A stretch of 64,000 bases of DNA from the sequence record NC_135730.1; one strand, 5' to 3'. Both the position numbers and the translations under genes were made by a program. Of this stretch, positions 3,358 to 60,848 are shown one piece after another. Under the pieces are notes generated by a model. That model saw only the letters and a program-made list of their open reading frames with translations. It made no database searches and was not told the DNA's origin. The stretch is from a phage. How positions within the stretch are numbered: the stretch's first letter is position 1; each line of letters starts with the position of its first letter.

Positions 3358-4365
3358 ATGATTACTCGTAAAGATGAATTTGGCATTGTTGATTTAGGTG
3401 CTACTCTGGACCTTGTTCCGCGTCAATTTCGCCTGATTACCGGTATGGATCTGTTCGAAACTCGTCTCGGCACCTCAACAATTGCTCAGATCGAGCGTGT
3501 TGATGAAGTTGTAACCGACATTCCGGCACGCCGTCGTGGTGGTGAGCGTAACTACGTTGGTAGTGAACGTGCTCAGGTTAAAAACCTGAACATCCCGTTC
3601 TTCCCTCTGGACAAAGGCATCACTGCCGCAGATGTTCAGAACTTCCGTCGTTACTTCACTCCTGATGCTCCGAAAACTGTTCAGGACGTAGTAACCCGCG
3701 TTGTTCGCCGTATCCGTGTTTCTCATGAAGCACTGCGTGAGAAAGCGCTGTTCCAGGCTATTCTGGGTAAATCCTATGCACCTGGTGACACAACCTGTCA
3801 GTATGACTACTACACTCTGTGGGGCGTAGATCAGAAATCTGTAGAAATCGATCCAGCAAAAGCAGATCAGGACCCGATGGAAGTTCTGGAAGACGCTCGT
3901 CTGCATATCGCCCTGCAAGCTGGTGACAACGCTGCTGGCTACCGTATCGTGGCTCTGTGCTCTCCTGAGTTCTTCAGTGCAATCACTCACCACCCTCTGG
4001 TAGAGCTGGCATACACCTACTACGGCTCTGCTCAGGAACCTCTGCGTCGTCGTCTGGGTGCTGGCGGTCAGGACAGCGTTTATCGTGTGTTCGAACATAA
4101 AGGTATCACCTTTATCGAAGATATCTCTGGCAATATTCCTAAGAAAGAAGCTCGCATTCTGCCGATGGGTATTGATCAGATGTTCCAGCTGCACTTTGCT
4201 CCGGCAGATGATGTTAACGAAGCAAATACCCCAGCACAGGAACTGTATATGTGGTATAAACACTCTGCATACCTGCGTGAAGAGAAGATTGAATCTGAAA
4301 CTTCCATGCTGGCAGTTAACACCCGTCCAGAGCTGGTTGTTAAAGCAACTCTGAAAGGTGAATAA
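3358..4365 (+). CDS. major capsid protein (lambda gpE-like)
   Basis: 335-aa ORF with length and sequence character of the gpE capsid family; followed by a strong intrinsic terminator. Confidence 0.7.
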   Translation: MITRKDEFGIVDLGATLDLVPRQFRLITGMDLFETRLGTSTIAQIERVDEVVTDIPARRRGGERNYVGSERAQVKNLNIPFFPLDKGITAADVQNFRRYFTPDAPKTVQDVVTRVVRRIRVSHEALREKALFQAILGKSYAPGDTTCQYDYYTLWGVDQKSVEIDPAKADQDPMEVLEDARLHIALQAGDNAAGYRIVALCSPEFFSAITHHPLVELAYTYYGSAQEPLRRRLGAGGQDSVYRVFEHKGITFIEDISGNIPKKEARILPMGIDQMFQLHFAPADDVNEANTPAQELYMWYKHSAYLREEKIESETSMLAVNTRPELVVKATLKGE

Positions 4366-4389
4366 TCACTAAGGTGATTCATCCCATAT

Positions 4390-4417
4390 GGGGAGGGGGT
4401 TCTCCCCTCCCCTTTTT
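4390..4417 (+). terminator. intrinsic terminator after the capsid gene
   Basis: GGGGAGGGG-gttct-CCCCTCCCC, 9-bp perfect stem, then TTTTT. Confidence 0.7.
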
Positions 4418-4445
4418 ATTTATTAGGGTTTAACAGGAGTGTCCC

Positions 4446-5291
4446 GTGAAGAGAGCCGTATATCCAGTTGAGTATGATCCGCTATTAAGAGTTTTCAACA
4501 ATCAGTTAAGTTTTTATCAATTTTTAGCACAATATAACCCAGAAATCAATGTTGGTTTATCAGCCCTGCTGCCACCAACAGAATTCGTTATTGGCAGTGT
4601 TCACTATCCATGTAGAACGATTGTAGACTTCTTTGAGAAGATTGCAAAACATACAGGCCTGCCAATTGATACTGGTATTTCAACTATCCGTATGGGTGTT
4701 ATTCTTCTGTTCTTCACAGAGAACCTTGATGAAAGCACTTTAACACTGCAAAGCGGGGATGTCAATATCACCCTCACCCCGTCAGTGTTTAAAGAGGTAG
4801 ATGCTGCTTTCCAAGTTTCCGTGGCAGAGGGGCATCTATGGGACCCTGTAGGGATGCCTAAAAAAGTGACCATAAACGATGAGCAATGCAACATTGTTTA
4901 TGAAGAAGATACCCAAACTTTCACCATTGAGTGGCCTAAGAAACGTTCTCAGGTTGTAAATCTTGGACTGGTTTCTACGATAGCTCCACCGCCTGAACCA
5001 GAACCGGAGCCGCCTGTAGGTCCTACTGAACCTGGTGGTGACGGTGAAGAATCCCCAGATCCGGCTGCACCGGGAGGCACTGAGCAGGATCCTGAACAGG
5101 CACAAGAATCAAGATCTTCTCGCAGTGATATTGATGCCATACTGCAGCAGGCCGCAGCTCTTAACAACGAAGATGACAAAAGTGGTTCAAAAGATGCACT
5201 CCAAACCTTCGCCAAAGAGCACGGTGTTACCTTAAGTAAGGCAAAAACTTTCCAAAATATGATGAAAGATTTTGAGGCTGCACTGGCATAA
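4446..5291 (+). CDS. hypothetical virion-associated protein with Pro/Glu-rich linker
   Basis: GTG start 8 nt after AGGAG; PPPEPEPEPPVGPTEPGG low-complexity linker; followed by a terminator. Confidence 0.4.
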   Translation: MKRAVYPVEYDPLLRVFNNQLSFYQFLAQYNPEINVGLSALLPPTEFVIGSVHYPCRTIVDFFEKIAKHTGLPIDTGISTIRMGVILLFFTENLDESTLTLQSGDVNITLTPSVFKEVDAAFQVSVAEGHLWDPVGMPKKVTINDEQCNIVYEEDTQTFTIEWPKKRSQVVNLGLVSTIAPPPEPEPEPPVGPTEPGGDGEESPDPAAPGGTEQDPEQAQESRSSRSDIDAILQQAAALNNEDDKSGSKDALQTFAKEHGVTLSKAKTFQNMMKDFEAALA

Positions 5292-5298
5292 TTTTGTT

Positions 5299-5336
5299 AA
5301 GGCCCCTTCCAAATCAGGAATGGGGCTTTATTTTTA
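5299..5336 (+). terminator. intrinsic terminator
   Basis: AAGGCCCC ... GGGGCTTT extended hairpin followed by TTTATTTTT. Confidence 0.5.
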
Positions 5337-5350
5337 CGAGGTATTTTCAA

Positions 5351-5971
5351 ATGGCATGGTATGAAGATGAAGAGATTATCCCGTCCCCGCCTAACCATGA
5401 TGGTGTAGTCGATACCCCAGAAGAACCACCAAAAGAAGATCCTGTACTTCCGGAACCTGATCCAGACCAACCTCTTATCAATATTATGAGGTTGTTGCTC
5501 GGCAATGTTGATGAGGAAACTCTCCCTGATGAGGTAATTAAAACATTCCTTGACATGGAGAAGTTGAAACTAAATTATCCGGCAGATCCTGATAAGCTAC
5601 CTCTGCTCAAGTACAATGTGCTTGTGCAACTTGTGCGGTGGCTAATGATGCAGGAAGTGTCCAGCGGTAATGCAAGTATAACTTCCCGTCTGGAAAAAAT
5701 AGGTGATGAGACCATAGAGATTCGTGGTGGATCTTCCTACGCTCAATGGAAAGATTTCCTTGATTGGCTGCTGGCACACCCAGACTATGTAGATTCTGAG
5801 CTAGATGCTTACAGCAGAATGATTATCATTGGTGGTGTTCGTGTAGATGAAGGAATTCGGGTTAAATTTAATGAAAACAGCAACGGGCCGTTCGATGTCC
5901 AGGGTATTACACCTATCAGTGGTCTAAATAACCAACCTCCCCGCCACCCAAGACGCAAACGCAGTTTTTAA
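5351..5971 (+). CDS. hypothetical protein with Pro-rich acidic N-terminal region
   Basis: ATG 5351 downstream of the terminator at 5299-5336; track start 5294 lies inside the terminator hairpin. Confidence 0.35.
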   Translation: MAWYEDEEIIPSPPNHDGVVDTPEEPPKEDPVLPEPDPDQPLINIMRLLLGNVDEETLPDEVIKTFLDMEKLKLNYPADPDKLPLLKYNVLVQLVRWLMMQEVSSGNASITSRLEKIGDETIEIRGGSSYAQWKDFLDWLLAHPDYVDSELDAYSRMIIIGGVRVDEGIRVKFNENSNGPFDVQGITPISGLNNQPPRHPRRKRSF

Positions 5972-48001: not shown

Positions 48002-48235
48002 TTAATCTTCGTAAATCAGGATTTCTGCTTTAGGTTTTCGTGCTTTCAGGTCCAGCTCTATCCAGTGCACCATAGCTGTTTCAAGAAAAACAGCTTGGAT
48101 GCATCCGTCCTCAGCGTGCCCCACCAACATAACGAGATCTTCACCTTCGTCATCTGCATCACGAACATAAAGAATCTCTCCAGATTCAAAGTCTTTCACA
48201 ACCTGATTGCTAGATAATTTACGAATTTTTGCCAT
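48002..48235 (-). CDS. small protein, paralog family member 4
   Basis: 77 aa; RBS GAGGG; shares the GEIL/GTVV-centred pattern with the three upstream 87-aa ORFs. Confidence 0.4.
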   Translation of the reverse strand: MAKIRKLSSNQVVKDFESGEILYVRDADDEGEDLVMLVGHAEDGCIQAVFLETAMVHWIELDLKARKPKAEILIYED

Positions 48236-48236
48236 A

Positions 48237-48500
48237 TCAGAAACCCTCTAAAAAGCTCTTGTAGAAAACAATCTCAGTATCCACACCAGTCACAATCTTG
48301 TCGTTCCTGATTTCATCGGTAAGATAGGTGTCAAAACGCAGAACCTGTGTGGTGTTGTCACACATCCACTCAGCTGTGACCATTGCGAAAATCTTAGCAT
48401 CTTCATTATCTGGTGTGAATGTTACCACCTCACCGCACTTAAACTTTTCGATAGGTTGAGTGTTAGCTTTCGGTTCTGCGATAGTGATTTTTGTGGTCAT
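48237..48500 (-). CDS. small protein, paralog family member 3
   Basis: 87 aa; start overlaps the upstream stop; motif KCGEVVTF. Confidence 0.4.
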   Translation of the reverse strand: MTTKITIAEPKANTQPIEKFKCGEVVTFTPDNEDAKIFAMVTAEWMCDNTTQVLRFDTYLTDEIRNDKIVTGVDTEIVFYKSFLEGF

Positions 48501-48763
48501 TATTCTCCTCCTTCTTTTGAATAGCTTGTCTCTCCAAGGATGGTAATTTTGGTGTCAAGCTCTGTAACTTTCATGTTTGGTGGCAGATCGTACAACTCAT
48601 TATTTTCTAAATCGAACCCCCACACACAATGTTCTCCTGTTTTGACAATCATAACTATGTTTTGAATGCCGTCTCCGTCGCAACTTACCACGGTCCCACA
48701 CGGAAAGCTGTCTGCACGCTTTTTGTTCTTCACCTTAGAATTGAATACAATGCTGGTAGCCAT
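48500..48763 (-). CDS. small protein, paralog family member 2
   Basis: 87 aa; MAT...GTVV...VTELD..ILGE pattern shared with member 1. Confidence 0.4.
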   Translation of the reverse strand: MATSIVFNSKVKNKKRADSFPCGTVVSCDGDGIQNIVMIVKTGEHCVWGFDLENNELYDLPPNMKVTELDTKITILGETSYSKEGGE

Positions 48764-49026
48764 TATTGTTCCTCCACCATAACTTCGCCAAGAATTTCTA
48801 TGCAGGCATCCATTTCTGTAACAACCAAACTGTGAGGTAGTTCTACAAACACCTTTCTGAACAGGTCAAATACCCCAACATATATGTTTGCAGGATGTGA
48901 TTTTACAACAAGTGCTGTATTCACATCCCCAAGTTCATCAACAAACATCACCACAGTGCCTGGAGCTACTGAGGACAGATACTTCTTAGTTTTACGGTTT
49001 GATGCAAATTTTAACTCTGTTGCCAT
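48763..49026 (-). CDS. small protein, paralog family member 1
   Basis: 87 aa; strong RBS GAGGAGG; MAT...GTVV...VTEMD..ILGE. Confidence 0.4.
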   Translation of the reverse strand: MATELKFASNRKTKKYLSSVAPGTVVMFVDELGDVNTALVVKSHPANIYVGVFDLFRKVFVELPHSLVVTEMDACIEILGEVMVEEQ

Positions 49027-49041
49027 AAATAACCTCCTCTC

Positions 49042-50523
49042 TTACTTAGCGTACTCGATTAATTCCACAGTTTTCCCAAAGCTCGGGATATAATTTTTAT
49101 TATACCCCTCAGTGAGGACCCATAGAGTATCGTACTTTTTCCACTTGTTGTCAACAACCTTTTGTTCAAAGTTATGCTCAAAGTATAGGTCGGTCAGGAC
49201 GATGACATCTTTTGCATTTGGTATGTTGGCATCCAGATACTCGAACACGCAAGCAGCTGTTGTTCCCCATGTCGAGTGGACCTCATAGTTGATCATTTCG
49301 TCTATGTTGCCGCGAGTGTATACTTTAACCTCTCCAACCTCAGTTGACCAACAGAACATTGTAACCTTAAATTCTTTATACAGATTGCACAATCCGGTGA
49401 TTTCATTGAACATTTTCTTTAAAGTTCTTTGAGAGATCGAGCCAGAAACGTCTAAAGCCACCACAATATCTATAGTGTTTTCCGGATTACGACCAGGAAC
49501 AATAACGTGCTGGTTCTTGTTTATAGCTCCGACTTTTCGCATTGTGCTGGTCAAAGACCCAGATCGGCGACCAGGTTTTCTGTAGGTCAGTTCAGCCTTT
49601 CGTTTAGACAACATGCGTTGCTTGATGATGTCTATATAATTGATTACAGGCTTACCTCTATTCTTGACAAACTCACGAACCGCCTCAGGGCAACGACCTC
49701 CGGAAGCTTGCATTGCTGCCTCAAGCATGTCACCAGAGTCCTGCATGGCCTGATCTTTATCAGATTGGCTGATTACAGGTTGTGGCTGATCATACCCCAT
49801 AGCCTTTCCAAGATCATCACTGGTGCCACCGTTCCCACTCATGTGATCATCGGTTTGTCGCTTATCTCCTTGAGAGTTCTCACCTTTACCGCTCTTACTT
49901 TTACCGTTATTCTGATCTCTTTGCTTATCAAGAACTGCATAGACGTTCTCAGCAATCCATCCATGAAACTTCATGTCGCAGTAGCAGTTAGCTAAGAAGC
50001 CAAAAGGCTTGCCTTTCACGAACGTAGTGCTTTTCCCCTTCGGGAAGAAAACACAAGGAGGCTTGCTAAAGTCAACCACAAGACCTGTGTTGATAACGTG
50101 ATCACAAGCAATATTGAACAGTTCCGGCTCAAAGCTTTTACCACGGACCAGGTGATCACAGATAATATGCCCCACCTCATGTGACAGAAGGAAGGCCACC
50201 TCTTTCACAGATTTTGGGGAATAGAAAACTTCAGCCATCTCAAACTGCTCGTCAGTTAGAGAAGCCTTAAGAATAGCCTTGCGTTCATCAGCCAATCCCA
50301 TAATGAACTCAGGGCTGTAATAAATGCGTTTATGGTCGGTTGCCATGGTGGAGCACCATGTGTGGTTTTCTACGAACTGCAACCCTGACAGCAGTGTGCC
50401 ATAAAACGGCAGCTTTTCAAGGAGATACATACGTGCAGCCTGCAACATTCTCAGGGCATCATCTTTCTGTGAGGCAATGATTTCTGAACTTCTGCTATCC
50501 ATTAAAACTCCAGAAGGGGCCAT
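49042..50523 (-). CDS. metallopeptidase-like / VWA-like domain protein (DUF2201-type)
   Basis: N-terminal HEVGHIICDH (HExxH zinc-peptidase motif); C-terminal IDIVVALDVSGSIS (VWA MIDAS-like DxSxS). Confidence 0.55.
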   Translation of the reverse strand: MAPSGVLMDSRSSEIIASQKDDALRMLQAARMYLLEKLPFYGTLLSGLQFVENHTWCSTMATDHKRIYYSPEFIMGLADERKAILKASLTDEQFEMAEVFYSPKSVKEVAFLLSHEVGHIICDHLVRGKSFEPELFNIACDHVINTGLVVDFSKPPCVFFPKGKSTTFVKGKPFGFLANCYCDMKFHGWIAENVYAVLDKQRDQNNGKSKSGKGENSQGDKRQTDDHMSGNGGTSDDLGKAMGYDQPQPVISQSDKDQAMQDSGDMLEAAMQASGGRCPEAVREFVKNRGKPVINYIDIIKQRMLSKRKAELTYRKPGRRSGSLTSTMRKVGAINKNQHVIVPGRNPENTIDIVVALDVSGSISQRTLKKMFNEITGLCNLYKEFKVTMFCWSTEVGEVKVYTRGNIDEMINYEVHSTWGTTAACVFEYLDANIPNAKDVIVLTDLYFEHNFEQKVVDNKWKKYDTLWVLTEGYNKNYIPSFGKTVELIEYAK

Positions 50524-50535
50524 TGGCCCCTGTCA

Positions 50536-51513
50536 TTATTTAACGTGTTTGAAAATACCTGCCAACTCGGTCATTGTCATGCGGGTGGTCTTCATAAGAT
50601 CTGTCATAGCTTTCTCCATAATTGGAGATACTACCATAAAGTTTCCTTTAGTGAAACCTTTATTCCAGTCGGTCACCAACAGTGGTTTAAGTCCAGCTCC
50701 GAGACGTTCACCAGTTAAAGCACAGCATTTGCGAATATACGAACTCTTAAATTGGCTGAACGACAGATCAACTTTCATACCTGCATCGTAGAACGTTTGA
50801 CAATAGAAAGTGTAAGCCTTAGCAATCTCAACATCATCAGGCAGTGCAGGAACTTCTTCTGCAATCTCCTCTTCGACCTCCTGAGGATCTTTTTCCTCTT
50901 CAGAGTTCTGTTCTTCAATTTCTTCTGCCACAGTCTCGTTTACGATGTCTGAAATGTGTTTGTTGGCTGCACGATCAGCCATGAAATTTTTAAAGTCCTG
51001 CATTGGTGACATATCTTCCTCCTCTTCGTCAAATAGTGCTAGTTTATCTTCTTCTGTCCCGTATTGCAAGATGAAATCTTCAAAAGTATAATCACCTTTC
51101 AATTTCTCCATACGCTCTTCGCTCAGGTGGAGCATCATCTGCTGGACAATTTTTCGATCAGTTTTGTCTTTAATCAGGATTGCAGTCTTTTTATCTACCA
51201 GACAGTCTTTCAGAGCATTGCACCTCAACCCTACCACACAACAATTATCAATTGCGTAAGGACCTTCATCATCTATCCGCTCCAGAGATGGGTAGAAAGG
51301 ATTTCCCAGTCCGTTTTCATCTGTGTGCATGTCGAAAGGTATAAGGGTGTAGTCGCATACCCCCTCCCCTAAAAGTTTTTTACCAAATAGGAGGTATTCT
51401 TCCCACGACAGGTCGAACTCTATATCTCGTTTCCGTGCATTATTCTGTTTGCGTCTATATTTTTTGAGCAGGCGCTCTAACTCTTCTGGTGTATAATATT
51501 TTTCAAGATTCAT
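50536..51513 (-). CDS. HNH-like endonuclease domain protein with acidic linker
   Basis: PSLERIDDEGPYAIDNCCVVGLRCNALK resembles the SIDRID...GY...N...C..CN..K HNH variant; ATG 51513 with RBS GAGAGA preferred over track TTG 51579. Confidence 0.4.
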   Translation of the reverse strand: MNLEKYYTPEELERLLKKYRRKQNNARKRDIEFDLSWEEYLLFGKKLLGEGVCDYTLIPFDMHTDENGLGNPFYPSLERIDDEGPYAIDNCCVVGLRCNALKDCLVDKKTAILIKDKTDRKIVQQMMLHLSEERMEKLKGDYTFEDFILQYGTEEDKLALFDEEEEDMSPMQDFKNFMADRAANKHISDIVNETVAEEIEEQNSEEEKDPQEVEEEIAEEVPALPDDVEIAKAYTFYCQTFYDAGMKVDLSFSQFKSSYIRKCCALTGERLGAGLKPLLVTDWNKGFTKGNFMVVSPIMEKAMTDLMKTTRMTMTELAGIFKHVK

Positions 51514-51544
51514 GAGTTGTCTCTCGTGCTCTGTAGGTGAAGAA

Positions 51545-51573
51545 ATCTTATCAAGTGCCTCGACAGATGTCAA
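51545..51573 (-). promoter_or_regulatory. divergent promoter for the minus-strand block
   Basis: On the minus strand TTGACA -17- TAAGAT; its -35 forms an inverted repeat with the plus-strand -35. Confidence 0.4.
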
Positions 51574-51586
51574 CCTCAAAAACGTG

Positions 51587-51615
51587 TTGACTTTACTATA
51601 AATCTACGATATAGT
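51587..51615 (+). promoter_or_regulatory. early promoter for the plus-strand block
   Basis: TTGACT -17- TATAGT, 40 nt upstream of ATG 51656. Confidence 0.55.
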
Positions 51616-51655
51616 GCACCCATTCGAAAGAAAACGAACACAGGAGCACTTAATC

Positions 51656-52555
51656 ATGGCAAATCTTAACAGCTTTAGCACTCGGTGGAAACAAGATATC
51701 ACAACCAATCTCTCAGCAGGTGATATCCTTTCTGCAATTTACGAGGCTTTGGATGATAAAGCTACTTCAAAATCGGTTTGTACCAACCCCCTAATTCCTA
51801 TAGTGATGAAGGTGATTGAGCGTAGATTGGTATCTGGGTCTGATAAGTGGACATATTTAGATAATGAAGGACACACCTATTCCAACGGGTATGTCGATAT
51901 AAAAGTAGAATACGCGGTATCATACCGCCGGAGCGGTTCTGTGACTTTCAACTTTTCTGGAGGTTTCCGATCTCTGGCAACTTCACCTTTTGTTTCCTCA
52001 GAAGAGAAGTTTGAACTTCCGTTCCTTTGGATGATGGCTAACGCGACAGGAAAAACCCCCGTGAGTATTCGCGTAAAATACAACTACAACGGGTCCAGTA
52101 AGATATATGCCGAGAGTATCTCAGCAAGTTTTTATTTTGTGATGGGAGATGGAATCCTCAAGCATATAAAGATGTGCGATATGCACGATGTTATAAATGA
52201 AGTGACTGATAAGAATGTTCTGGTGAAGGACCTCAACAATTTCTATACACCTGGAGACTATTACGTCAACCGCCCACTGTGCATCTTTAATGCCGCACAC
52301 CCTTTGGGTGAATACCTGATCGTTAATAGTGACATTGCTAACAACATTTTTGAACTGGCAAGAGTACAAAATGAGGTATTGACATCCTGCAAGAGTGGTG
52401 ATAAATTCACTGATGAAGAGATGGGCGTTTTAGAAATGATGGGGTATAAATGCAGTCTTTGGGTAGATGAGGTGTTTAATGACTACATCTACGGACAGGA
52501 TATTTACCCGTTAAAGAAGTATACTGATACAAGTTTAATTTATGCGGGGATTTGA
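51656..52555 (+). CDS. hypothetical early protein
   Basis: ATG 51656 preceded by AGGAG and promoter 51587-51615; track GTG 51614 lies inside the -10 element. Confidence 0.4.
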   Translation: MANLNSFSTRWKQDITTNLSAGDILSAIYEALDDKATSKSVCTNPLIPIVMKVIERRLVSGSDKWTYLDNEGHTYSNGYVDIKVEYAVSYRRSGSVTFNFSGGFRSLATSPFVSSEEKFELPFLWMMANATGKTPVSIRVKYNYNGSSKIYAESISASFYFVMGDGILKHIKMCDMHDVINEVTDKNVLVKDLNNFYTPGDYYVNRPLCIFNAAHPLGEYLIVNSDIANNIFELARVQNEVLTSCKSGDKFTDEEMGVLEMMGYKCSLWVDEVFNDYIYGQDIYPLKKYTDTSLIYAGI

Positions 52556-52557
52556 CT

Positions 52558-52830
52558 ATGATGAAGGCATGTGGTAATGTATATTACGTCGGTGAACATG
52601 TTCAGGCAGACAGTGTGTGGAAATCTATTAAGTCCACCACTGACGATGCCTTTCTGAGTGGACTATGTTTCCCCAATCCGGGAGACATCCTCCCTCATCC
52701 TGGAGATTTTGTTGTCAACAAGATGGACGGTTATACCGTGTGCCTGATGGTTGAAAAAATCTTTTTAGACACTAGACACAATCACCGTCTTGTGTTAAAA
52801 TTTCAAGAATGTAAAATGACAATTGCCTAA
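52558..52830 (+). CDS. hypothetical protein
   Basis: First ATG of the ORF (track TTG 52552); overlaps the upstream stop. Confidence 0.3.
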   Translation: MMKACGNVYYVGEHVQADSVWKSIKSTTDDAFLSGLCFPNPGDILPHPGDFVVNKMDGYTVCLMVEKIFLDTRHNHRLVLKFQECKMTIA

Positions 52831-52843
52831 GGAGACCTTACCG

Positions 52844-53200
52844 ATGTCTAAAGTTACTTATCGTGCAGCTATTTACTGCAATGAACACCCAATCAATAAT
52901 GATGGTCACTGCCTTTTTAAAGAAAATCAGTTGGGATGTATTGTCCTCCCTGATGAAGGGAAAGGTTATCTGATTGCATTGACAGGGTTTGAACCTGAAG
53001 CTCTGGAAGCCAATCTGGACTACCTGGTAGAAGAGGGTGCTGCAGACCTGGTTGCCAATGGCTTCTCCATAAGCCTTGACGAAGTGGAGCGCTTCATGGG
53101 CAATTACCGTGTAGTGCGTGAGTTTACTATCGAGGTGGAAACTCCAGAGTGGGGTAGCCATGAAACTAATGCCGAAGAAAAAGAAGAGGAGGTAGAATAA
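52844..53200 (+). CDS. hypothetical acidic protein
   Basis: ATG 52844 with RBS AAGGAGA (track TTG 52823); acidic C-terminus EEKEEEVE. Confidence 0.35.
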   Translation: MSKVTYRAAIYCNEHPINNDGHCLFKENQLGCIVLPDEGKGYLIALTGFEPEALEANLDYLVEEGAADLVANGFSISLDEVERFMGNYRVVREFTIEVETPEWGSHETNAEEKEEEVE

Positions 53201-53457
53201 TGAAAGTGCAGATCTTGACTAATGCCGAGAAGATGTTTATTGAAGATACACCTTTTGAAGCTGGTGAGCTACAGTTCATTTATTTTGTTGACTTAGATAA
53301 GGTGTTCCCTGCACTGAATCTTGGTCTGGATGAAGTTCCTCATAAGGTTTTGTGCCAAGTTGTTCGTGCATTAGCGGCAGATGGGGAGTTCCACACCCTT
53401 GAAGATGTCCAGACCTACGGGTATCTTGAACTACAACGAGAAGAAGAGGTGAACTGA
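53200..53457 (+). CDS. hypothetical small acidic protein
   Basis: 85-aa ORF; start overlaps the upstream stop. Confidence 0.35.
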   Translation: MKVQILTNAEKMFIEDTPFEAGELQFIYFVDLDKVFPALNLGLDEVPHKVLCQVVRALAADGEFHTLEDVQTYGYLELQREEEVN

Positions 53458-53459
53458 TA

Positions 53460-53840
53460 ATGGCCCAGTGGAAGACAACAGTTGACCTTCATGATCAGTG
53501 GTTAGGACGCATCACTGAAGACGGGAAGCTAGTGGAGTGGGACAATAAGCATGTTAGCGAGTTGGCAAGTATTGTGGCTGGCAAGTTACGCTCCAAGTTC
53601 CCTGAACAACTGGATCCTGATAGTTCAAAGTTCGATCCTGAGTTGGAGGATGTTGTATACTACTTCGACACCGTTGATGACTACGACGCGTGGTTTGCAG
53701 CACAGGAGCTTTACCCACAAGGCTCTGCTATGCGCCAGATGGAAGAAGATTATCCTCCGTGTGAGCAATTCAATAGTGCAATGACTTGCCTCTATGATTG
53801 GGCAGATAAGAACCTTGTCTGGATTCGGACCGTATTCTAG
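53460..53840 (+). CDS. hypothetical protein
   Basis: 126-aa ORF in the tightly packed early operon. Confidence 0.35.
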   Translation: MAQWKTTVDLHDQWLGRITEDGKLVEWDNKHVSELASIVAGKLRSKFPEQLDPDSSKFDPELEDVVYYFDTVDDYDAWFAAQELYPQGSAMRQMEEDYPPCEQFNSAMTCLYDWADKNLVWIRTVF

Positions 53841-53846
53841 CAAGTA

Positions 53847-54149
53847 GTGGCAAGGATGCCACTTAAAAGAGTAATAAACATGTTATACCAGCAATATGAA
53901 CTTCGTGCAGAAAAAGAGTTAAATTTTGACAAAGATATTCACAGATATTATTATGGGAAAGTTAGAGGGCAAGCAAGAAAGTGTACTCCAACACTCTTTT
54001 ATGCCAGCAGACGACTAGCGCCAGAAGAGGCAACAGCAGAAAGGGTTGCGTACAACTGGAGAGTCACGTATGATATTGACAGATCCGATGTGATATCTGT
54101 TTTGGAAAACTTTGAAAACACTTACACACAAGTAGAGGACTTTTACTAA
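53847..54149 (+). CDS. hypothetical protein
   Basis: 100-aa ORF; end overlaps the next start. Confidence 0.35.
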   Translation: MARMPLKRVINMLYQQYELRAEKELNFDKDIHRYYYGKVRGQARKCTPTLFYASRRLAPEEATAERVAYNWRVTYDIDRSDVISVLENFENTYTQVEDFY

Positions 54150-55333
54150 TGTCAAGAAACGTATTCGAAAGTGGTCAAATCACTGTCCGTGAGTTGCCAG
54201 CTATTATTCAGTTTGCCCAACGTCATAGCCGATCTGTCCTAATTTTGGGACCAATGGGTGTGGGTAAAAGCCAGGTGATGAAGCAGATCGCTGATAATAT
54301 GTTCGGTGAGCGAGATGACAACCTTGTTGACGTGCGACTGTCAGATAAAGATCCTGCCGACTTATCTGGGCTACCTATCCCTGTAGAAGCGGATGGAACT
54401 ACACGTACAGTGTTTGCAATTCCAGAATTTTGGCCTGCTGATCCTGACTGGAGCGGAATTATCTTTCTGGATGAGCTCACTCATGCAGATAACTACCTGC
54501 AAAAGGTTGCAATGCAAATTATGCTTGACCACAAGTGCGGTACCTATGCATTCCCTAAGGGTTCTGTTTTTGTGGCTGCTGGTAACCGTTCTACAGATGG
54601 TGCGGTTCTTTCGGCGCTCGAAGCCCCTCTGGCTAACCGTTTTATCATTGTAGAGGTTACAAGCAATGCAGAGGTGTTTATTGAGGACTACGCATTCCTT
54701 AATGGGGTGCACTCCTCTGTAATTGGATATCTGAAAAGAGTTCCATCAGCTATCGATAATTATGAGGCCATGGCTGAGATTAATTGTCCATCTTTTGCCA
54801 CACCACGATCTTGGGTTGCTGCATCTGACATCTTGCACGATTTTGACAGCGGTATTATTTCTGACGCTATGGCCCGTGTTCTTCTGCAAGGTGCTATTGG
54901 TCACACTGCAGCGGTAGAGATCTGGACCTACCACACCAAGAAACGCAATTTACCGGAAATCGGTCGGATTATGGCAGGTGGCTGCAAAGAATACGTAGGC
55001 CCTAAGCAGCCAGACATTTTGTGGATTCTTGGATCTGAAGGTTGTATCGCTATTCGTAATATGATGGAAAATGCAAGTATCTCAGACGAAGATCTTGTCA
55101 GCTGCGTGGCAAACTTCCTCGATTTCCTTTGGGAAAACTTCAAGGACGAGAACCGAGATTTTGTATTCTCAGTCTTTATGGCGATGATGAAGCCTAATGC
55201 CTTAGGAAATGCCTTGCTTATCGGTAAAGGTCGTGACAAGATTGTTGCTCAGCTGATCAAAGCATACCCAAACCTGATGAAGATTGTAAAAGAGTTTGGT
55301 GAAGAGTTTAGCGCCATTTTGGCTAAAGCTTAA
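54149..55333 (+). CDS. MoxR / CobS-like AAA+ ATPase
   Basis: Walker A GPMGVGKS and Walker B IIFLDELTHAD; length and layout of AAA_5 / MoxR family. Confidence 0.6.
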   Translation: MSRNVFESGQITVRELPAIIQFAQRHSRSVLILGPMGVGKSQVMKQIADNMFGERDDNLVDVRLSDKDPADLSGLPIPVEADGTTRTVFAIPEFWPADPDWSGIIFLDELTHADNYLQKVAMQIMLDHKCGTYAFPKGSVFVAAGNRSTDGAVLSALEAPLANRFIIVEVTSNAEVFIEDYAFLNGVHSSVIGYLKRVPSAIDNYEAMAEINCPSFATPRSWVAASDILHDFDSGIISDAMARVLLQGAIGHTAAVEIWTYHTKKRNLPEIGRIMAGGCKEYVGPKQPDILWILGSEGCIAIRNMMENASISDEDLVSCVANFLDFLWENFKDENRDFVFSVFMAMMKPNALGNALLIGKGRDKIVAQLIKAYPNLMKIVKEFGEEFSAILAKA

Positions 55334-55342
55334 GGGGGTTGT

Positions 55343-55723
55343 ATGGCTAAAGTAGGTAAGCGGGGAAACTACCTGGTGGTATTGACCGAGGAGCCGGAGA
55401 AGGAGTACGAATGCAGCTCCACTTGCGTGATCGATATCCGAGAAAAAGATGTAGATGAAATCTGGTTTAAAATATTGGACGCTTGCGACAGCAGTGATTA
55501 TTTCTTCATCTATGTCAACGATAAGGCTGGGTTCTTCCATGACGACGGAGAGTTGCCGTATGAAATCTATGAACTTGTAGAGGCTTGCCATCGTGGAGAT
55601 GCGGAGTTGTTTGGCTTACGGCTGAAAAGCGGTAAATTCTTCTATCAAGATGAGTGCATGAATCTTCATAACTTTGTAGAGGGAACTTGCAACGATGGAG
55701 AGATTTTGGCACACTACGATTAA
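55343..55723 (+). CDS. hypothetical protein
   Basis: 126-aa ORF followed by an intrinsic terminator. Confidence 0.35.
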   Translation: MAKVGKRGNYLVVLTEEPEKEYECSSTCVIDIREKDVDEIWFKILDACDSSDYFFIYVNDKAGFFHDDGELPYEIYELVEACHRGDAELFGLRLKSGKFFYQDECMNLHNFVEGTCNDGEILAHYD

Positions 55724-55736
55724 TTTCTAAGACCTC

Positions 55737-55762
55737 CCCCGCTTCGGCGGGGATTTTCTATT
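55737..55762 (+). terminator. intrinsic terminator (TTCG tetraloop)
   Basis: CCCCGC-ttcg-GCGGGG then ATTTTCTATTT. Confidence 0.55.
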
Positions 55763-55772
55763 TGGAGTTATT

Positions 55773-56273
55773 GTGAAAATTAAGATCTTTGCTATTATTT
55801 TGAGCGCATTTTTATCGCTGCCTGTTGTTGCAGCACCAAAACAAAAAGTATATCATACTTGCAAGCCCTCAGATACTAAGGAAAACATTCTGGCATGCAA
55901 TATCTACAGGGAGGCTAGAGGGGATGGCACGATGGGTATGCTGGCATCCGGGTTTGCCACACTAAACAGGAAATCTCACCCCAAATACCCAGACACTATA
56001 AGAAAGATTGTCTACCAACCTAACCAGTTTTCGTGGACAAACCACGGCAAAACTTTTAAGGTGACAGAAAAAGATTCATGGGATCACGCTAAAAGTCTTG
56101 CAAAGATGCTTCTAAAGGTCTATAATAACAACCATGTTGCATACATGGCTATGGACATAACAGGTGGAGCAACACACTACCATACAACCAAAGTACGACC
56201 GAAATGGGCAAAAAAGATGCAGAGGACAGCTCAATTCGGGAGTCATATCTACTACAAGGAGCGCAATAAATGA
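55773..56273 (+). CDS. secreted cell-wall hydrolase (SleB / Hydrolase_2-like)
   Basis: N-terminal signal peptide MKIKIFAIILSAFLSLPVVAA; family-like motifs NIYREARGD, QPNQFSW, GGATHYH; GTG start. Confidence 0.55.
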   Translation: MKIKIFAIILSAFLSLPVVAAPKQKVYHTCKPSDTKENILACNIYREARGDGTMGMLASGFATLNRKSHPKYPDTIRKIVYQPNQFSWTNHGKTFKVTEKDSWDHAKSLAKMLLKVYNNNHVAYMAMDITGGATHYHTTKVRPKWAKKMQRTAQFGSHIYYKERNK

Positions 56274-57389
56274 TTGTAAACAGTAATGAAACTAAAGCAG
56301 TACTAACCGGAAATATGGAGGTCACCAGGGGCTCAATTTCTCTGAACAAAGAGACTTTTGGGCTAATCATTAAAGGGATTTACGAAGATAAGGTGCTGGC
56401 AAGCTGCCGTGAACCAATCTTCAATGCTGTGGACTCTCATGTTGAGTCTGGACGGGGTGATGTGCCGATCATTATTCACTCTCCTACAGACCTTGAACCA
56501 TACTTCTTTGTGCAGGACGTTGGATTGGGCATGTCAGAAGAGATGGTCCGCAACACTTTCATGAACCTCGGTGAGTCAACCAAGCGCAACAGCAACGCTC
56601 TGGTTGGCAATAAAGGTGTTGGTTCAAAGGCTCCGTTCAGCATGGTGGACACTTTCGATGTTATCAGTGTGCACAATGGTATTGAAAGCACATATCTATT
56701 GTTCTTGGATCAGGGTATCCCAAACGTTACCAAGATCCGCGAGCGGAAGACTGAAGAGCACAACGGGGTAAAAGTTCAGTTCCATGTTAAGAAAGAGCAT
56801 GTCCTGAAATATCGCACTGCTATTGCATCGTGCTTACGCTATGCGAAGTTTCCGTTCATCGTCACCGATCCCATGACCAGTAAGATGTTAGAAGGTGACA
56901 AGGTTGAGGCACAGTATCATTACGAGAAGGATGGCTGGAAAATGACCATCCTGAAAGGTTATACCAGTTCTGATGAGAGCCGTGTTGTGATGGGTCACCA
57001 ACCTTACCGCTCCAAGTTCCTGGAGACATTGACCGATTACCCTGCAATCTGCGTGGAAATTCCTATTGGGGATTGCAATATTAACCCTGGGCGTGAATGG
57101 ACCATAGAGGGCCATGACGACGGTGGATTCCAGGATCGCCTGGAGGCATTTGTCAAAGAAGGTATACGTCTTCGCGGGGCAGAAGTTGTTGCAGAACTGG
57201 AGACGGCAAAAACCTCCGCAGAAGCACGTGAAATGATGAAGAATAGTGGAGTGTTCGGACACATCTTCGGCAAGAACTTTATGTGGAACCGTTGGGAAGA
57301 AACAGGGCTTGGCGACTTAGGCGATTGTGAAATTTTCGCTGGCGGCTTAAATAAAGGCCGCATAGGCTATGCTTGTTACGGAAAGTCGG
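56270..57389 (+). CDS. GHKL-family (Bergerat-fold) ATPase, N-terminal portion; 3' end runs into the assembly gap
   Basis: N-box REPIFNAVDS (ExxxNAxD), G1 box DVGLGMS (DxGxG), G2 box GNKGVGSKAPF; ORF continues into the N run at 57390. Confidence 0.5.
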
Positions 57390-57399
57390 NNNNNNNNNN
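57390..57399. other. assembly gap (10 N)
   Basis: Run of ten n characters in the sequence. Confidence 0.99.
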
Positions 57400-58262
57400 A
57401 GTTCTTACGAGGTGTATACCTTGTATTTAACGACGGAGACGGCAAATATAACCGGAATAAGTGTAACTACTTAAGCGAGATCACCGGACGCAACGTTTTC
57501 TATTGCCGGAACACGGATCTGGTGAAAGAGTTTAAAGAGGCGGCACACCATCCGTTCTTTGCAGATACGGTCAAATTGTTATCGGAGCTTCCACGCCGAC
57601 CTGCGAAGAAAGGTGAAACCAAAACTCGTTACGAGCCAGGCTACTGGGTTAAGAAGCTTAGAGAGGATGGCTACTTCCATCGTGAGCGCCTCACGAAGGC
57701 AGAGTTCAAGAAGATTAAGCATTGCATCCCTTATGAGGGGGATATCCAACGGGGAAGCTGCTGGCTGGGCCAGATGAGTAACATCTACCAGCAAAATTAT
57801 GACCGTGTGCGTGCTGCACTCCAGATTCCTGAAGGTGAAGATCTGTACCTGGTATCAGAATCTCGTCTGCTTTGGACTGATCCTGATTGCCAGTATGTTA
57901 CAGAGAAGAATGTGGAACATTTGTTGAAAGAGGATGCTTGGAAATTCTTACTGACTCGCGCAGCAAATGAAACTTCATATGACAGCCTGTATAGACAATT
58001 AGGGAAAATTATCCCCATGCAGGATTTTGGAAATTATCGGCCACATTTCCACAAGTGGGAAGGTAACACCGCGTGGAAGCACAGTGAGCTAAATCATCGT
58101 GCCAAAATCTTAATCGCCAACCGGGTTAAGTGCGGGAAGGCCTATATTGCAAGATTGGAAAAGAAATATCCACTTTTGAAGCATGTGGGCTTGAAATATT
58201 GGGACACTCCTGCTATGATTGAATACCGTGAACTGATCGATACAAAGAATAACATCAAATAA
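57400..58262 (+). CDS. hypothetical protein, post-gap portion (possibly the C-terminal part of the GHKL ATPase gene)
   Basis: Open frame from the gap to the stop at 58262; reading-frame relationship to the upstream ORF cannot be determined across the gap. Confidence 0.35.
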
Positions 58263-58272
58263 GGAGACCAAG

Positions 58273-59478
58273 ATGATTTTCATCTACGAACATTTCAAAA
58301 CCCGTAAAGAAGCACGAGACCGCCGTGCAGAACTTGAGAAGAAGGGTTTCACATGTGCCATTGAGAAAGGCGACACAACCTGGACACTGGCAGTTGGTGC
58401 CCCAGAGTTGTTCGATCCTGACCGTGACAGCGTCTGCTACACCCGTGAGGATTTTGAAACCCGCGAAGAGGCCCGTTTATTTCGATACGGTCTGGAAGAT
58501 AACGGTAAGTACGCTATGATCTTAGATTTAGGCGAAGGTTCCGTTAAACGTTGGGGCGTGGTATACCCACTGTGTGTTGTTCACGGTGTGGGGTTCACTG
58601 GGGTAGCAATCAAGTCAGAAGAACCTTTAGTAGAAGTCAAAGATCCGGTGCTGGAGGTGGTGAGCAGTGTGTCTCAGCAACAGTCTCGAAGCATCGAGCC
58701 TTTGGTAGTTATTTGTGGGGAACTCCTCCAGATCACCTGCAACGAAGGCATTTTTGAAATTCGCCGCAGCGAAAGTGAGGAAGTTTACCAGAAAGTCTTC
58801 GACCATATCTCTGTTCAGGAATATGATGAGGCAATTGGTGAAATCCTTGTCTGGCTGGAACGCAAGAATGAGTTCACCACACTTGCAGACAACCTGATCA
58901 TGAAAGATGGCAAGCTCTACTACTACGGTGTAGAGATGCGATCCACCATTGCAAAGAAAATTGAGAAAGATTATGCAGACGGAACGCTGGATGACCGCTA
59001 TGTGAAATTCCTCGTTCGCCTGCTACGCAATCCTTCTGCAAAATCTGTAAACATGCTCTACGATTTTATGCAGGCCAACGATATCCAGATTGCAGAAGAT
59101 GGTCGAATCATTTGCTACAAAGGGGTTCAGTTTAACGGCAGCAAGTGGGTGGATTGGCACAGTGGTAAAGTTCCACAATACCAGGGTGCTTTTGTATCCA
59201 TGCCTCGTAACTTTGTAGAGGATGATCCTGAAGCTGCGTGCTCCTATGGCTTACACTGCGCCAGCAAGGAGTATGCAAAGAGCTACGGCACTGTAATGAC
59301 TGTTATGGTTGATCCTGCAGATGTGGTTAGTGTGCCATACCAACACAATAGCGCTAAATGCCGTGCATGCCGCTATGAGATTGTGGTAGCTCCGGAAGCA
59401 CGCAAAGATGGAGACCCTATTGAATATGTAGTTGATCGTGACGGTAATACTATCGACATTCTTTACGAGGAGGCGTAA
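58273..59478 (+). CDS. hypothetical protein with two N-terminal ~45-aa tandem repeats
   Basis: Repeats EHFKTRKEARDRRAELEKKGFTCAIEKGDTTWTL and EDFETREEARLFRYGLEDNGKYAMILDLGEG; RBS AAGGAGA. Confidence 0.35.
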   Translation: MIFIYEHFKTRKEARDRRAELEKKGFTCAIEKGDTTWTLAVGAPELFDPDRDSVCYTREDFETREEARLFRYGLEDNGKYAMILDLGEGSVKRWGVVYPLCVVHGVGFTGVAIKSEEPLVEVKDPVLEVVSSVSQQQSRSIEPLVVICGELLQITCNEGIFEIRRSESEEVYQKVFDHISVQEYDEAIGEILVWLERKNEFTTLADNLIMKDGKLYYYGVEMRSTIAKKIEKDYADGTLDDRYVKFLVRLLRNPSAKSVNMLYDFMQANDIQIAEDGRIICYKGVQFNGSKWVDWHSGKVPQYQGAFVSMPRNFVEDDPEAACSYGLHCASKEYAKSYGTVMTVMVDPADVVSVPYQHNSAKCRACRYEIVVAPEARKDGDPIEYVVDRDGNTIDILYEEA

Positions 59479-60848
59479 TGGAAAAAGGGCAGTATGATGT
59501 AGGCACAGATGCTGCCCTCGTTGCAATCATGAGCGGTGAGAATGTCTTCGTTTCAGGACCCGCAGGTTGTGGGAAGACGTACCTCATCAACATGATCCAG
59601 TCAATGTATGGAGACTCTTGCATAACGGTTGCCCCGACAGGGGTAGCCGCTTTAAACGTTAATGGAGCAACAGCACACCGAACCTTCGATCTTGCAGCAG
59701 GTGTGAGCATGGAGTCGGACTGGACCGCAATAAGGGCAAAAACAGCAAAGCCTTTGAAAAGCAAGGCATTTACCATCCTAATTATCGATGAAATCTCTAT
59801 GATTCGTGCTGATAAGTTTATAGAGATGGATAGGAAACTCCGCTTCCTTCGAAAAAATGACAAACCTTTCGGGGGCATACAGGTCATATTGTTTGGCGAT
59901 TTTTACCAGGCACCTCCTGTTGTCTCTTCTATGGAGAAGGAAGCCTACTTCAACTTCTACCATACGGACCTGTGTTGCTATACCGAATCTTGGAAAGAGC
60001 TTGACCTCCACAACATAGCCCTAATAGATCAGTTCCGACAGGAGTCTATTCGATTTGCTACAATGCTCAACTGTGTTCGTGAGGGTCGTCGCATAAAAGA
60101 GGTTGTAGCAGAACTTAATGCTCGCTGTTACAAAGGAGGTGTACCAACAGACGCTCTCACAATTTGCGCCACCAACAAACAAGCAGAGGAAGTGAACAGA
60201 AGGTTCTATGATGCCATCAACGCCCCAGAGAAGGTATACACTGGTGAAATGAAGGGTAAGTTTCCCTCCACCCTGCCAGTTGAGCAGGAGATGAAGTTGA
60301 AAATTGGCATGAAAGTTATGATAACCGCCAACGATGTTGACCCGACGCACAAAGTACCTTATTATGTTAACGGAACACGTGCCACAATTGTTAAATTTAA
60401 GAACAAGGCGGTGGTGGTAGAGCTTGAAGATGGAACACAGGTTGACATAGAGCAGAGGTTGTGGGAGAATAACGAGTATAAGCCCTCTCAGAGATACAAC
60501 ATTGCAGAAAGGAAGATGGAGAAGTTTATAGAGAGGGTAGTGATTGGGTCATACAAGCAACTTCCTCTGAAATCTGGGTACGCCGTAACATCTCATAAAA
60601 GTCAAGGACTTACGCTAGATTGTTACAACCTAGACCTTGGAAAGAACGGAGCTTTCTCTCCTGGGATGACGTATGTCGCTTTGAGTAGAGTTAAGACAAT
60701 ACAAGGAATAAACTTGTTGCGTCCACTAAGAGAAGTTGACATTATTGTTGACCCGCGAGTCGTAGAGTTTTACAATACAACATTCCCTGACTTAGACAAA
60801 ATTGTCAGGAAAGATTTTGAAACCAGAGCAGAAGAGGGGGACGTATGA
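59478..60848 (+). CDS. SF1 DNA helicase (PIF1 / RecD / Dda-like)
   Basis: Walker A GPAGCGKTY, motif VAPTGVAA, Walker B IIDEISMI, GDFYQAPPV. Confidence 0.6.
   Translation: MEKGQYDVGTDAALVAIMSGENVFVSGPAGCGKTYLINMIQSMYGDSCITVAPTGVAALNVNGATAHRTFDLAAGVSMESDWTAIRAKTAKPLKSKAFTILIIDEISMIRADKFIEMDRKLRFLRKNDKPFGGIQVILFGDFYQAPPVVSSMEKEAYFNFYHTDLCCYTESWKELDLHNIALIDQFRQESIRFATMLNCVREGRRIKEVVAELNARCYKGGVPTDALTICATNKQAEEVNRRFYDAINAPEKVYTGEMKGKFPSTLPVEQEMKLKIGMKVMITANDVDPTHKVPYYVNGTRATIVKFKNKAVVVELEDGTQVDIEQRLWENNEYKPSQRYNIAERKMEKFIERVVIGSYKQLPLKSGYAVTSHKSQGLTLDCYNLDLGKNGAFSPGMTYVALSRVKTIQGINLLRPLREVDIIVDPRVVEFYNTTFPDLDKIVRKDFETRAEEGDV

Follow-up and report, generated by a model that had tools for sequence, protein, structure and literature searches.

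In this study, which was based on a 64,000-nucleotide stretch of phage DNA (NC_135730.1; hereafter the window), we asked whether two genes that are transcribed away from each other between positions 49,042 and 55,333 still form a pair. One of them encodes a MoxR-class AAA+ ATPase (54149-55333, + strand), and the other encodes a protein in which a zincin-like, putative metallopeptidase region is joined to a VWA domain (49042-50502, - strand; hereafter VWA-zincin). A preliminary description of the locus had pointed out that MoxR ATPases usually share an operon with a VWA partner, and it had treated the two divergent genes as candidates for such a pair. We consider it probable that they encode the cognate halves of a conserved two-component machine, that their genes were split by an inversion and that the machine remodels and cleaves a target protein. 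The argument is built on the homology and fold class of both proteins, the conservation of their motifs, their linkage across lineages, the purifying selection on both genes and the pattern of rearrangement, each of which was observed. The window comes from a coliphage of the genus Vequintavirus (the rV5-like phages), as was determined using a megablast search with 49042-55333, in which 121 phage records were matched, 114 of them covering at least 80% of the region; the top match was MG065659, 'Campylobacter phage C5' (99.8% identity), and the remainder were Escherichia rV5-like phages (90-98%).

The open reading frame (ORF) of the VWA-zincin was found at 49042-50523 on the - strand, as had been described, and encodes 493 amino acids; the residue numbers used here refer to this frame. 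The start is likely at ATG 50502, because a GGAG lies 7 nt upstream of it, because relatives have the 486-amino-acid product that results, as in the annotation of phage RudolfGeigy and in cluster P0121, and because the alternative in-frame ATG at 50523 sits within a GC-rich hairpin. The Pfam matches of the protein were far beyond chance, both for DUF2201_N (PF13203; E 3e-28, 99.4 bits with the cutoff at 23.2) and for DUF2201, 'VWA-like' (42.9 bits against 26.4, E 6e-11), and phrog_1314 was matched at E 4e-123. In the AlphaFold2 model, which has an overall predicted local distance difference test (pLDDT) score of 83, a helical N-terminal half is followed by a C-terminal α/β domain, with the acidic and Gly-rich residues 210-235 disordered (pLDDT below 50). 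The zincin-like, putative metallopeptidase region comprises residues ~14-321 (49561-50484) according to DUF2201_N and the model. It contains HEVGHIICDH (50152-50181), a putative HExxHxxxxH metal-binding and catalytic motif, and a second conserved zincin motif, A139-C140-D141-x-x-I-N145 (50089-50109). Among 36 aligned VWA-zincin sequences, which extend down to 21% identity, H115, E116, H119 and H124 were invariant, as were A139 and D141, while N145 was at least 90% conserved; an RPxRR segment at residues 316-320 is also conserved. The VWA domain occupies residues ~348-490 (49054-49482) and carries a metal ion-dependent adhesion site (MIDAS) with the DxSxS sequence D358-V-S360-G361-S362 (49438-49452), which is completed by T421 and D445. 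The MIDAS is a full one, with D358, S360, G361, S362, G420, T421, T444 and D445 all invariant in the same alignment. The α/β Rossmann-like VWA fold, on whose presence the preliminary description had staked its reading, was confirmed: the fold searches were dominated by this domain, and the structural matches included the VWA domain of NorD and the MIDAS domain of Rea1. The HExxH domain that it had proposed for the N-terminal part was likewise borne out by the four invariant residues and DUF2201_N. The PDB sequence search with the VWA-zincin protein returned no match, and the family profile gave weak matches in the PDB around HExxH, to selecase MJ1213 (E 0.012) and to BepA/HtpX. The family is large, with 14,483 clusters at 50% identity that reach E <= 1e-30.

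A different identity is implied by existing labels. 'HNH endonuclease' is the description of PHROG 1314 and the product name in several RefSeq records (NC_022323, NC_011041, NC_048807, NC_008720 for N4 gp25, and others), according to which the product of 49042-50523 would be a nuclease with no relation to the ATPase. We give this reading almost no credence, since no HNH family was found in the protein in the Pfam or NCBIfam searches, its full length is covered by DUF2201_N and VWA, and its conserved motifs are those of a zincin and a MIDAS. Judging from the sequence, the label is very probably wrong for the DUF2201 family and has been propagated as a misannotation.

Several observations on individual members of the family were made along the way. 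In the original rV5 record (DQ832317; L001 4001-5462), the VWA-zincin gene is cut into two overlapping coding sequences, ORF12 and ORF13, and a scan with a hidden Markov model (HMM) found it there in two frames (4004-4252 and 4140-5492). The gene is unbroken in JES2013, in RudolfGeigy and in the window, and the break in DQ832317 is probably a frameshift error of the 2006 sequence. One homologue of 701 amino acids (P0267) has an intein (CVVGE…VVHN) whose insertion point falls precisely between A and C in the A-C-D-x-x-I-N motif; inteins usually occupy functionally critical conserved sites. This protein had been considered as a fusion and was rejected, the intein accounting for its added length, and another candidate for a fusion with the ATPase (P0145, 819 amino acids) was rejected as having no AAA domain.

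The ATPase ORF was also found where it had been described; it encodes 394 amino acids, and its start overlaps the stop codon of the preceding ORF (TAATG). phrog_1297 matched it at E 2e-110. Direct sequence searches in Pfam, NCBIfam and the PDB yielded P-loop-level matches only (ClpB, ClpC, p97). The profile search that had been proposed as a check on the pair thus succeeded for DUF2201_N and DUF2201 and failed for AAA_5, which scored 16.7 bits against a threshold of 22; AAA_3 was not listed. The MoxR class rests on transitive homology, conserved motifs and fold, because the ATPase of the window misses the Pfam thresholds. A search of 5.8 billion proteins revealed a clade of ~360-amino-acid homologues (~35% identity, E 1e-44) in which AAA_3, the profile of the MoxR family, occurs together with AAA_5. 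Both profiles were matched at E <= 0.001 in 12 of the 35 aligned homologues, and P0048, which was examined in detail, exceeded both cutoffs. The family profile of the ATPase matched midasin (E 1.4e-9). In a Foldseek comparison with the PDB, ranks 1-17 were taken by NorQ, either alone or bound to the NorD VWA domain, and CbbQ2 (E 5e-8 to 1e-6; target-normalised TM-scores 0.58-0.66), with CHU_0153 (2r44) also listed. Based on homology and fold, we accept that the protein is a divergent ATPase of the MoxR class, as the preliminary description had suggested.

The motifs of the ATPase are equally well conserved across the 35 aligned sequences. In the Walker A sequence GPMGVGKS (residues 34-41, 54248-54271), G37, G39, K40 and S41 were invariant and G34 was at least 90% conserved; Walker B, D108-E109 (54470-54475), was invariant. 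The segment at 54584-54640 contains sensor-1 N146 (AAGNR), the post-sensor-1 loop and R164 (PLANRF), a putative arginine finger, with G145, N146, R147, D150, L161, N163 and R164 invariant. Sensor-2 is R220 (ATPRSW, 54806-54808), which is invariant together with P219 and begins the lid helix 219-233 in the AlphaFold2 model. This model (pLDDT 82.6) places a β-hairpin, residues 75-90 (54371-54418), between β2 and β3. It is the predicted helix-2 insert and adjoins the strongly conserved stretch D61-R63-L64…D71…G74…A90-P92-P96-P99. Short strands at 129-134, ahead of the sensor-1 strand, form a predicted pre-sensor-1 β-hairpin. The helix-2 insert and the pre-sensor-1 hairpin mark the AAA+ clade that includes MoxR, the chelatases, McrB, MCM, dynein and midasin. 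An assignment of the two proteins to defence or anti-defence was rejected as having no support from PADLOC, whose defence models gave no match for the VWA-zincin and P-loop-level matches only (E >= 0.003) for the ATPase.

Whether the two proteins belong together was addressed using HMMs that were built from the alignments of the ATPase and of the VWA-zincin and run over all of the fetched loci. There were 76 phage loci, with DNA available downstream of the ATPase gene, in which the VWA gene came directly after it, on the same strand and at a median distance of 72 bp. Ten further phage loci gave no VWA match; in nine of them, the contig runs out no more than 184 bp past the ATPase gene, and in one (L042) 1,067 bp were left. 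The split arrangement was found in only five phage loci (L001, L002, L011, L012 and L091), all of which belong to the Vequintavirinae. In large uncultured phages, a gene with DUF2201_N and DUF2201 lies right behind the ATPase gene on the same strand, and the same adjacency was observed in one contig in which a gene with AAA_3 precedes the VWA-zincin gene; in a 67-kb phage contig (L174), three small genes separate the pair, which is still on one strand. The bacterial loci were found with the bacterial sub-alignment and represent a single clade, the sulfur-oxidising gammaproteobacteria and their relatives. In this sample, the genes were adjacent and on the same strand in all 73 of the loci with enough upstream DNA. 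One of these loci, from a Nitrosomonadales metagenome-assembled genome (JAHFQY010000030.1; L133 3948-6248, + strand), has a single ORF of 767 amino acids that comprises AAA_5, DUF2201_N and DUF2201. It could be a natural fusion of the ATPase and the VWA-zincin, and a lost stop codon is also possible, since the contig has only ~4× coverage.

The same pair was recognised in phage N4 (L172) and in N4-like contigs as gp24 followed by gp25, adjacent and co-directional. When profiles were aligned using hhalign, the ATPase of the window matched gp24 with a probability of 99.9% (E 7.5e-35) and the VWA-zincin matched gp25 with a probability of 100% (E 2e-57). Chan et al. (PMC4193335) counted gp24 and gp25 in the set of 14 core genes for N4-like phages and placed them among the middle transcripts of N4. 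The occurrence of the two genes in isolate genomes also agreed closely by host, with ATPase/VWA counts of 211/213 for Escherichia, 104/108 for Pseudomonas, 26/26 for Pectobacterium, 17/17 for Cronobacter and 17/17 for Achromobacter. Divergence runs in parallel in the two proteins: across the same lineages, identity to the window was 53, 44, 35, ~33 and 27% for the ATPase and 43, 44, 34, 25-31 and 22% for the VWA-zincin. Both genes are under strong purifying selection, as was seen in a comparison with a relative whose DNA is 93% identical, in which 8 of the 80 differing codons in the ATPase gene and 10 of the 94 in the VWA-zincin gene change the amino acid. The co-occurrence that the preliminary description had proposed to look for was thus found in 76 phage and 73 bacterial loci, which makes the two genes more than candidates; the one-operon layout that it had called usual holds in all of the other lineages that were examined, with the two genes on the same strand and next to each other or almost so.

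In the window, the two genes lie on opposite strands and point apart, in divergent transcription units as had been noted, with 3.6 kb between their start codons and seven genes in the interval; the sign change of the GC skew coincides with the strand switch. This arrangement is common to Vequintavirus, to a Klebsiella BIS47-like genome (L012, 53% identity of the ATPase) and to Henunavirus (L091, 44%). In Certrevirus (L013 and L173; 35%), the pair is still adjacent, and the split is limited to the Vequintavirinae other than Certrevirus. One consequence might be that the proteins became functionally independent after the split, the ATPase acting alone or with another partner and the VWA-zincin acting without it. 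The annotation and layout indicate that the genes are no longer co-transcribed, candidate internal promoters including the one annotated as 'P4' in rV5 lie ahead of the ATPase gene, and the translation of this gene is coupled to that of a small ORF unrelated to it. We nevertheless consider independence improbable. Both genes were kept in every split genome that was examined, including L012 and Henunavirus; ~118 and 117 Vequintavirus records have them at 95% protein identity or more, and the 114 records mentioned above cover at least 80% of the region. In the split genomes, both proteins have kept all of the residues for catalysis and the MIDAS as well as the conserved helix-2-insert region, purifying selection is equally strong on both genes and their divergence is parallel. 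Moreover, no domain was gained or lost with the split, and the insertions that are specific to the clade are already present in proteins of the Certrevirus type.

The order of the neighbouring genes suggests how a cognate pair came to be separated. Certrevirus has, as anchor genes, the helicase and SleB facing leftward and then the ATPase and VWA genes facing rightward. The window has the VWA gene and a gene for an Srd-like protein facing leftward, followed rightward by six small genes, the ATPase gene, ORF3, SleB, rIIA, rIIB and the helicase. The two layouts are interconverted by the inversion of the block that extends from SleB to the spacer between the ATPase and VWA genes, so that a single inversion with a breakpoint in this short spacer is sufficient. 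The split is taken as the derived state because adjacency holds everywhere else. The ancestral and almost universal layout would then be an ATPase gene followed by a VWA gene in one operon, and in all Vequintavirinae but Certrevirus the inversion would have moved the VWA gene to the other side of the divergent early promoters. As a separate observation, N4 and the window (54149-60845) have in common the order ATPase … rIIA–rIIB … helicase, which may be remnant synteny between the replication and early modules of the Schitoviridae and the Vequintavirinae.

Between the two units lie back-to-back σ70-like promoters (51545-51615, both strands), which were recognised using a consensus scan, the sequence and the rV5 annotation. 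The candidate on the - strand has TTGACA at 51573-51568, a 17-nt spacer and TAAGAT ending at 51545, and is the promoter annotated as 'P11' in rV5. On the + strand, TTGACT starts at 51587 and is followed by a 17-nt spacer and TATAGT ending at 51615. The two -35 hexamers are 13 bp apart. With both units starting from this pair of candidate promoters, the genes could still be co-expressed early in infection, the VWA gene as the second gene leftward and the ATPase gene as the seventh rightward. Co-regulation of the two genes is plausible on these sequence grounds; no expression data for rV5-like phages were found in the literature searches.

The mechanism that we propose relies on NorQ/NorD, CbbQ/CbbO and Rea1 as analogues and on the residues that are conserved. 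The ATPase would assemble as a hexameric ring and would grip the VWA protein via the pore loops of the helix-2 insert and the post-sensor-1 loop. An acidic side chain of the target protein would be bound by the MIDAS site of the VWA domain, the target would be remodelled through ATP hydrolysis and, finally, it would be cleaved by the zincin domain with its invariant catalytic Glu. In NorQD, a 'finger' of the VWA domain enters the AAA+ pore, where it is gripped by the helix-2 inserts, a mode that is expected to be general for AAA+/VWA pairs (PMC13036017). Zhang and Aravind (PMC3495828) predicted that operons encoding MoxR, vWA and peptidase proteins are degradation systems in which a substrate is brought in by the vWA domain, unwound by MoxR and then cut by the peptidase. 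Among the possible activities of the pair, an ATP-dependent machine for remodelling and cleavage appears to be the likeliest because the domain that resembles a peptidase is part of the same protein as the VWA domain and has an invariant catalytic Glu.

A number of points weigh against this proposal. Physical interaction, formation of a ring, proteolysis by the zincin domain, the timing of expression and the target are all matters that we infer. The DUF2201 VWA domain is compact and has no obvious long insertion like the 'finger' of NorD. The zincin N-terminal domain has no close solved relative, its best sequence matches being at E 0.012 or above, and the ATPase of the window lies below every Pfam AAA gathering score. 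Many of the 76 adjacent phage loci come from one metagenomic clade and are not independent. The inversion model rests on four anchor genes, because the small intervening genes are not alignable: homology between those of Certrevirus and those of the window was undetectable. The direction of the inversion is read from the distant outgroups. The promoters are consensus matches, with 35 promoter-like sites found where 27 ± 5 are expected after shuffling, which is not clearly above expectation. Finally, the ATPase gene has candidate promoters ahead of it within its own unit (53926-53954, and 'P4' of rV5), and these could uncouple its expression from that of the VWA gene.

The main rival to a machine that remodels and cleaves is a non-proteolytic system for chaperoning or cofactor insertion that resembles NorQ/NorD, CbbQ/CbbO, RavA/ViaA or the chelatases. 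In such a system, the ATPase would remodel a target held by the VWA domain, and the HExxH domain would bind or deliver a metal, or bind the target, without cleaving it. The closest solved ATPases, NorQ and CbbQ2, belong to systems that insert metal or release inhibitors and do not degrade, and genes for ferrochelatase, thioredoxin and MoeA were found near some of the bacterial homologues. In the literature that was searched, there was neither a characterised member of DUF2201_N nor a report of its peptidase activity. Despite this, we consider this alternative unlikely. The Glu of HExxH, which is the general base of zincins, does not vary among the phage and bacterial sequences, the most distant of which have 21% identity, and three more positions are conserved with it; mere metal binding would not need this Glu. 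In addition, Pfam lists DUF2201_N as a putative metallopeptidase, and such weak similarity as is present is to the real peptidases selecase, BepA and HtpX.

It is feasible, although we hold this more specific idea only tentatively and would sooner bet against it, that pairs of the gp24/gp25 type constitute a phage ATP-dependent protease that has gone unrecognised, with a MoxR unfoldase ring and a peptidase that is supplied in trans on the VWA adaptor. Unrelated virulent lineages (the N4-like and rV5-like phages and several jumbo phages) would then use it to cleave a specific host or phage protein in early or mid infection, for example, a host factor that is removed for takeover or replication. 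This idea is compatible with the data: no variation was seen in the catalytic Glu, the MIDAS or the motifs of the ATPase, the N4-like phages have the pair as part of their core, and the family is large.

A comparison with known systems places the pair closest to N4 gp24/gp25 from the Schitoviridae, which are direct homologues with the same domain architecture and, as in the window, are encoded upstream of rIIA–rIIB–helicase. The N4 pair is adjacent, co-directional and expressed as middle genes by N4 RNA polymerase II, whereas that of the window is divergent with σ70-like promoters. Identity between the proteins of the two phages is only 22-27%, and the Vequintavirinae have added insertions of ~30 amino acids in the zincin domain and ~35 amino acids in the C-terminal region of the ATPase. 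NorQ/NorD and CbbQ/CbbO (CGN subfamily) provide the closest solved ATPase folds, and their partners likewise have a VWA domain with a MIDAS. In the model of the ATPase, the conserved helix-2 insert and the post-sensor-1 loop would be available for a finger-in-pore contact like that of NorQD. However, NorD and CbbO are much larger adaptors that do not have an HExxH peptidase-like domain, whereas the VWA domain of the window protein has no clear 'finger'. The jobs of these systems are the insertion of a cofactor into nitric oxide reductase and the activation of Rubisco, and their identity to the window proteins is 16-23%. Midasin/Rea1 of eukaryotes, the best PDB profile match of the ATPase family, has its own MIDAS/VWA that docks on the AAA ring, but it is a giant protein whose single chain holds six AAA modules in tandem; it acts in ribosome biogenesis and lacks a peptidase domain.

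Three further systems bear comparison. The MoxR–vWA–YebA operons (PMC3495828) combine an unfoldase, a recruiter and a peptidase in the way that is proposed here, both proposals being predictions. YebA is a separate, membrane-embedded peptidase of the cysteine-type TGL class, whereas in the window a soluble zincin domain is fused to the VWA domain. RavA/ViaA of E. coli are a MoxR AAA+ protein and a VWA partner that are encoded in one operon and act as chaperones on specific complexes; they differ in belonging to another MoxR subfamily, in the LARA domain of RavA, in a ViaA without a peptidase domain and in the adjacency of their genes. A viral pair is known from the Acidianus two-tailed virus, in which p618 (MoxR AAA+) and p892 (VWA) are cited as a chaperone of tail development (PMC9964418, PMC3495828). 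This virus infects archaea, and its pair has a role in extracellular tail morphogenesis and has no zincin domain.

The genes around the pair serve as context. The leftward unit opens with rV5 ORF11 (50536-51513, - strand), which lies directly upstream of the VWA gene and encodes the Srd-like 'anti-sigma factor'. This protein was matched by phrog_3118 (E 1e-110) and more weakly by PHROGs of the Srd and endonuclease VII-like types. Its position beside the VWA gene is kept in L012 and Henunavirus, and we mention it as context only, without implying that it belongs to the system. The PHROG labels for rV5 ORF11 conflict (HNH endonuclease, endonuclease VII, Srd anti-sigma, σ70 decoy), and there was no Pfam match. 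By eye, the protein looks like two degenerate modules of the HNH or endonuclease VII type that have lost their catalytic His residues. Between its stop codon and the start of the VWA gene, a perfect GC-rich hairpin was found at 50515-50531 (AGGGGCC-AAT-GGCCCCT, - strand), which overlaps ATG 50523. It may be an element for processing, stability or translation rather than a terminator, because no T-run follows it on the sense strand. Right downstream of the VWA gene (48002-49026, - strand), three to four small paralogous genes are arranged in tandem (87, 87, 87 and 77 amino acids), the first two of which are 38% identical and the others 15-22%. Neighbouring small genes in Henunavirus are labelled 'tail protein' and 'prolyl-tRNA synthetase', labels that look like propagated misannotations.

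In the rightward unit, six small genes that correspond to rV5 ORF10 to ORF5 and have no Pfam matches (51656-54149, + strand) precede the ATPase gene and are likewise context only. ORF5, which has the PHROG label 'ATPase', was considered as a third conserved component and was rejected because it is not conserved in L012 or Henunavirus. ORF10 (51656-52555, + strand) is annotated as a 'putative alpha 1-3 fucosyltransferase', had no match in Pfam or NCBIfam and matched only an unnamed PHROG; the fucosyltransferase name seems to go back to an old, weak similarity. Downstream of the ATPase gene, a terminator-like hairpin follows ORF3 (55737-55752). Further on, a run of 10 N at 57390-57399 lies within the rIIA gene, which consequently appears as two ORFs (56270-57430 and 57369-58262). 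Rather than a real disruption, the run looks like a gap of arbitrary length that was left by assembly or scaffolding.

Much of what is described here was already on record. The genes, their labels and the divergent layout have been deposited in GenBank for more than 100 rV5-like genomes. In rV5 (DQ832317), the ATPase is ORF4, 'MoxR ATPase', and the VWA gene is ORF12, 'hypothetical protein', and in the BASEL phage RudolfGeigy the two are labelled 'ATPase (MoxR ATPase)' and 'putative metallopeptidase'. The family is already catalogued in Pfam and PHROGs and is recognised as core in the N4-like phages. The split pair is a trait of one subfamily in a well-sampled phage genus, with nothing that is peculiar to this genome, and the locus adds little that is new: the feature is known and ordinary, and its evolution can be explained neatly. 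What this analysis adds is the explicit evidence for a cognate pair, the link to N4 gp24/gp25, the explanation by inversion and the correction of the HNH label. The literature searches returned nothing specific on function or essentiality, whether from CRISPRi-ART or from transposon mutagenesis, for DUF2201, rV5 ORF4/ORF12 or N4 gp24/gp25. It is worth mentioning that 16 of the deposited records are titled 'Campylobacter phage' (host C. jejuni) and are 96-99.8% identical to E. coli rV5-like phages; their attribution to a C. jejuni host looks doubtful.

For the Vequintavirinae, these findings mean that the ATPase and the VWA-zincin can be treated as one functional unit even though their genes are not neighbours, and that tools based on adjacency would miss this partnership. 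They also link the rV5-like phages to the gp24/gp25 core genes of N4 and to a family of very large size. Once a function is established in one model, such as N4 or a BASEL rV5-like phage (for example, Bas52, phage RudolfGeigy), it would carry over widely. If the pair does turn out to be an ATP-dependent protease, it would represent a new type of phage takeover enzyme.

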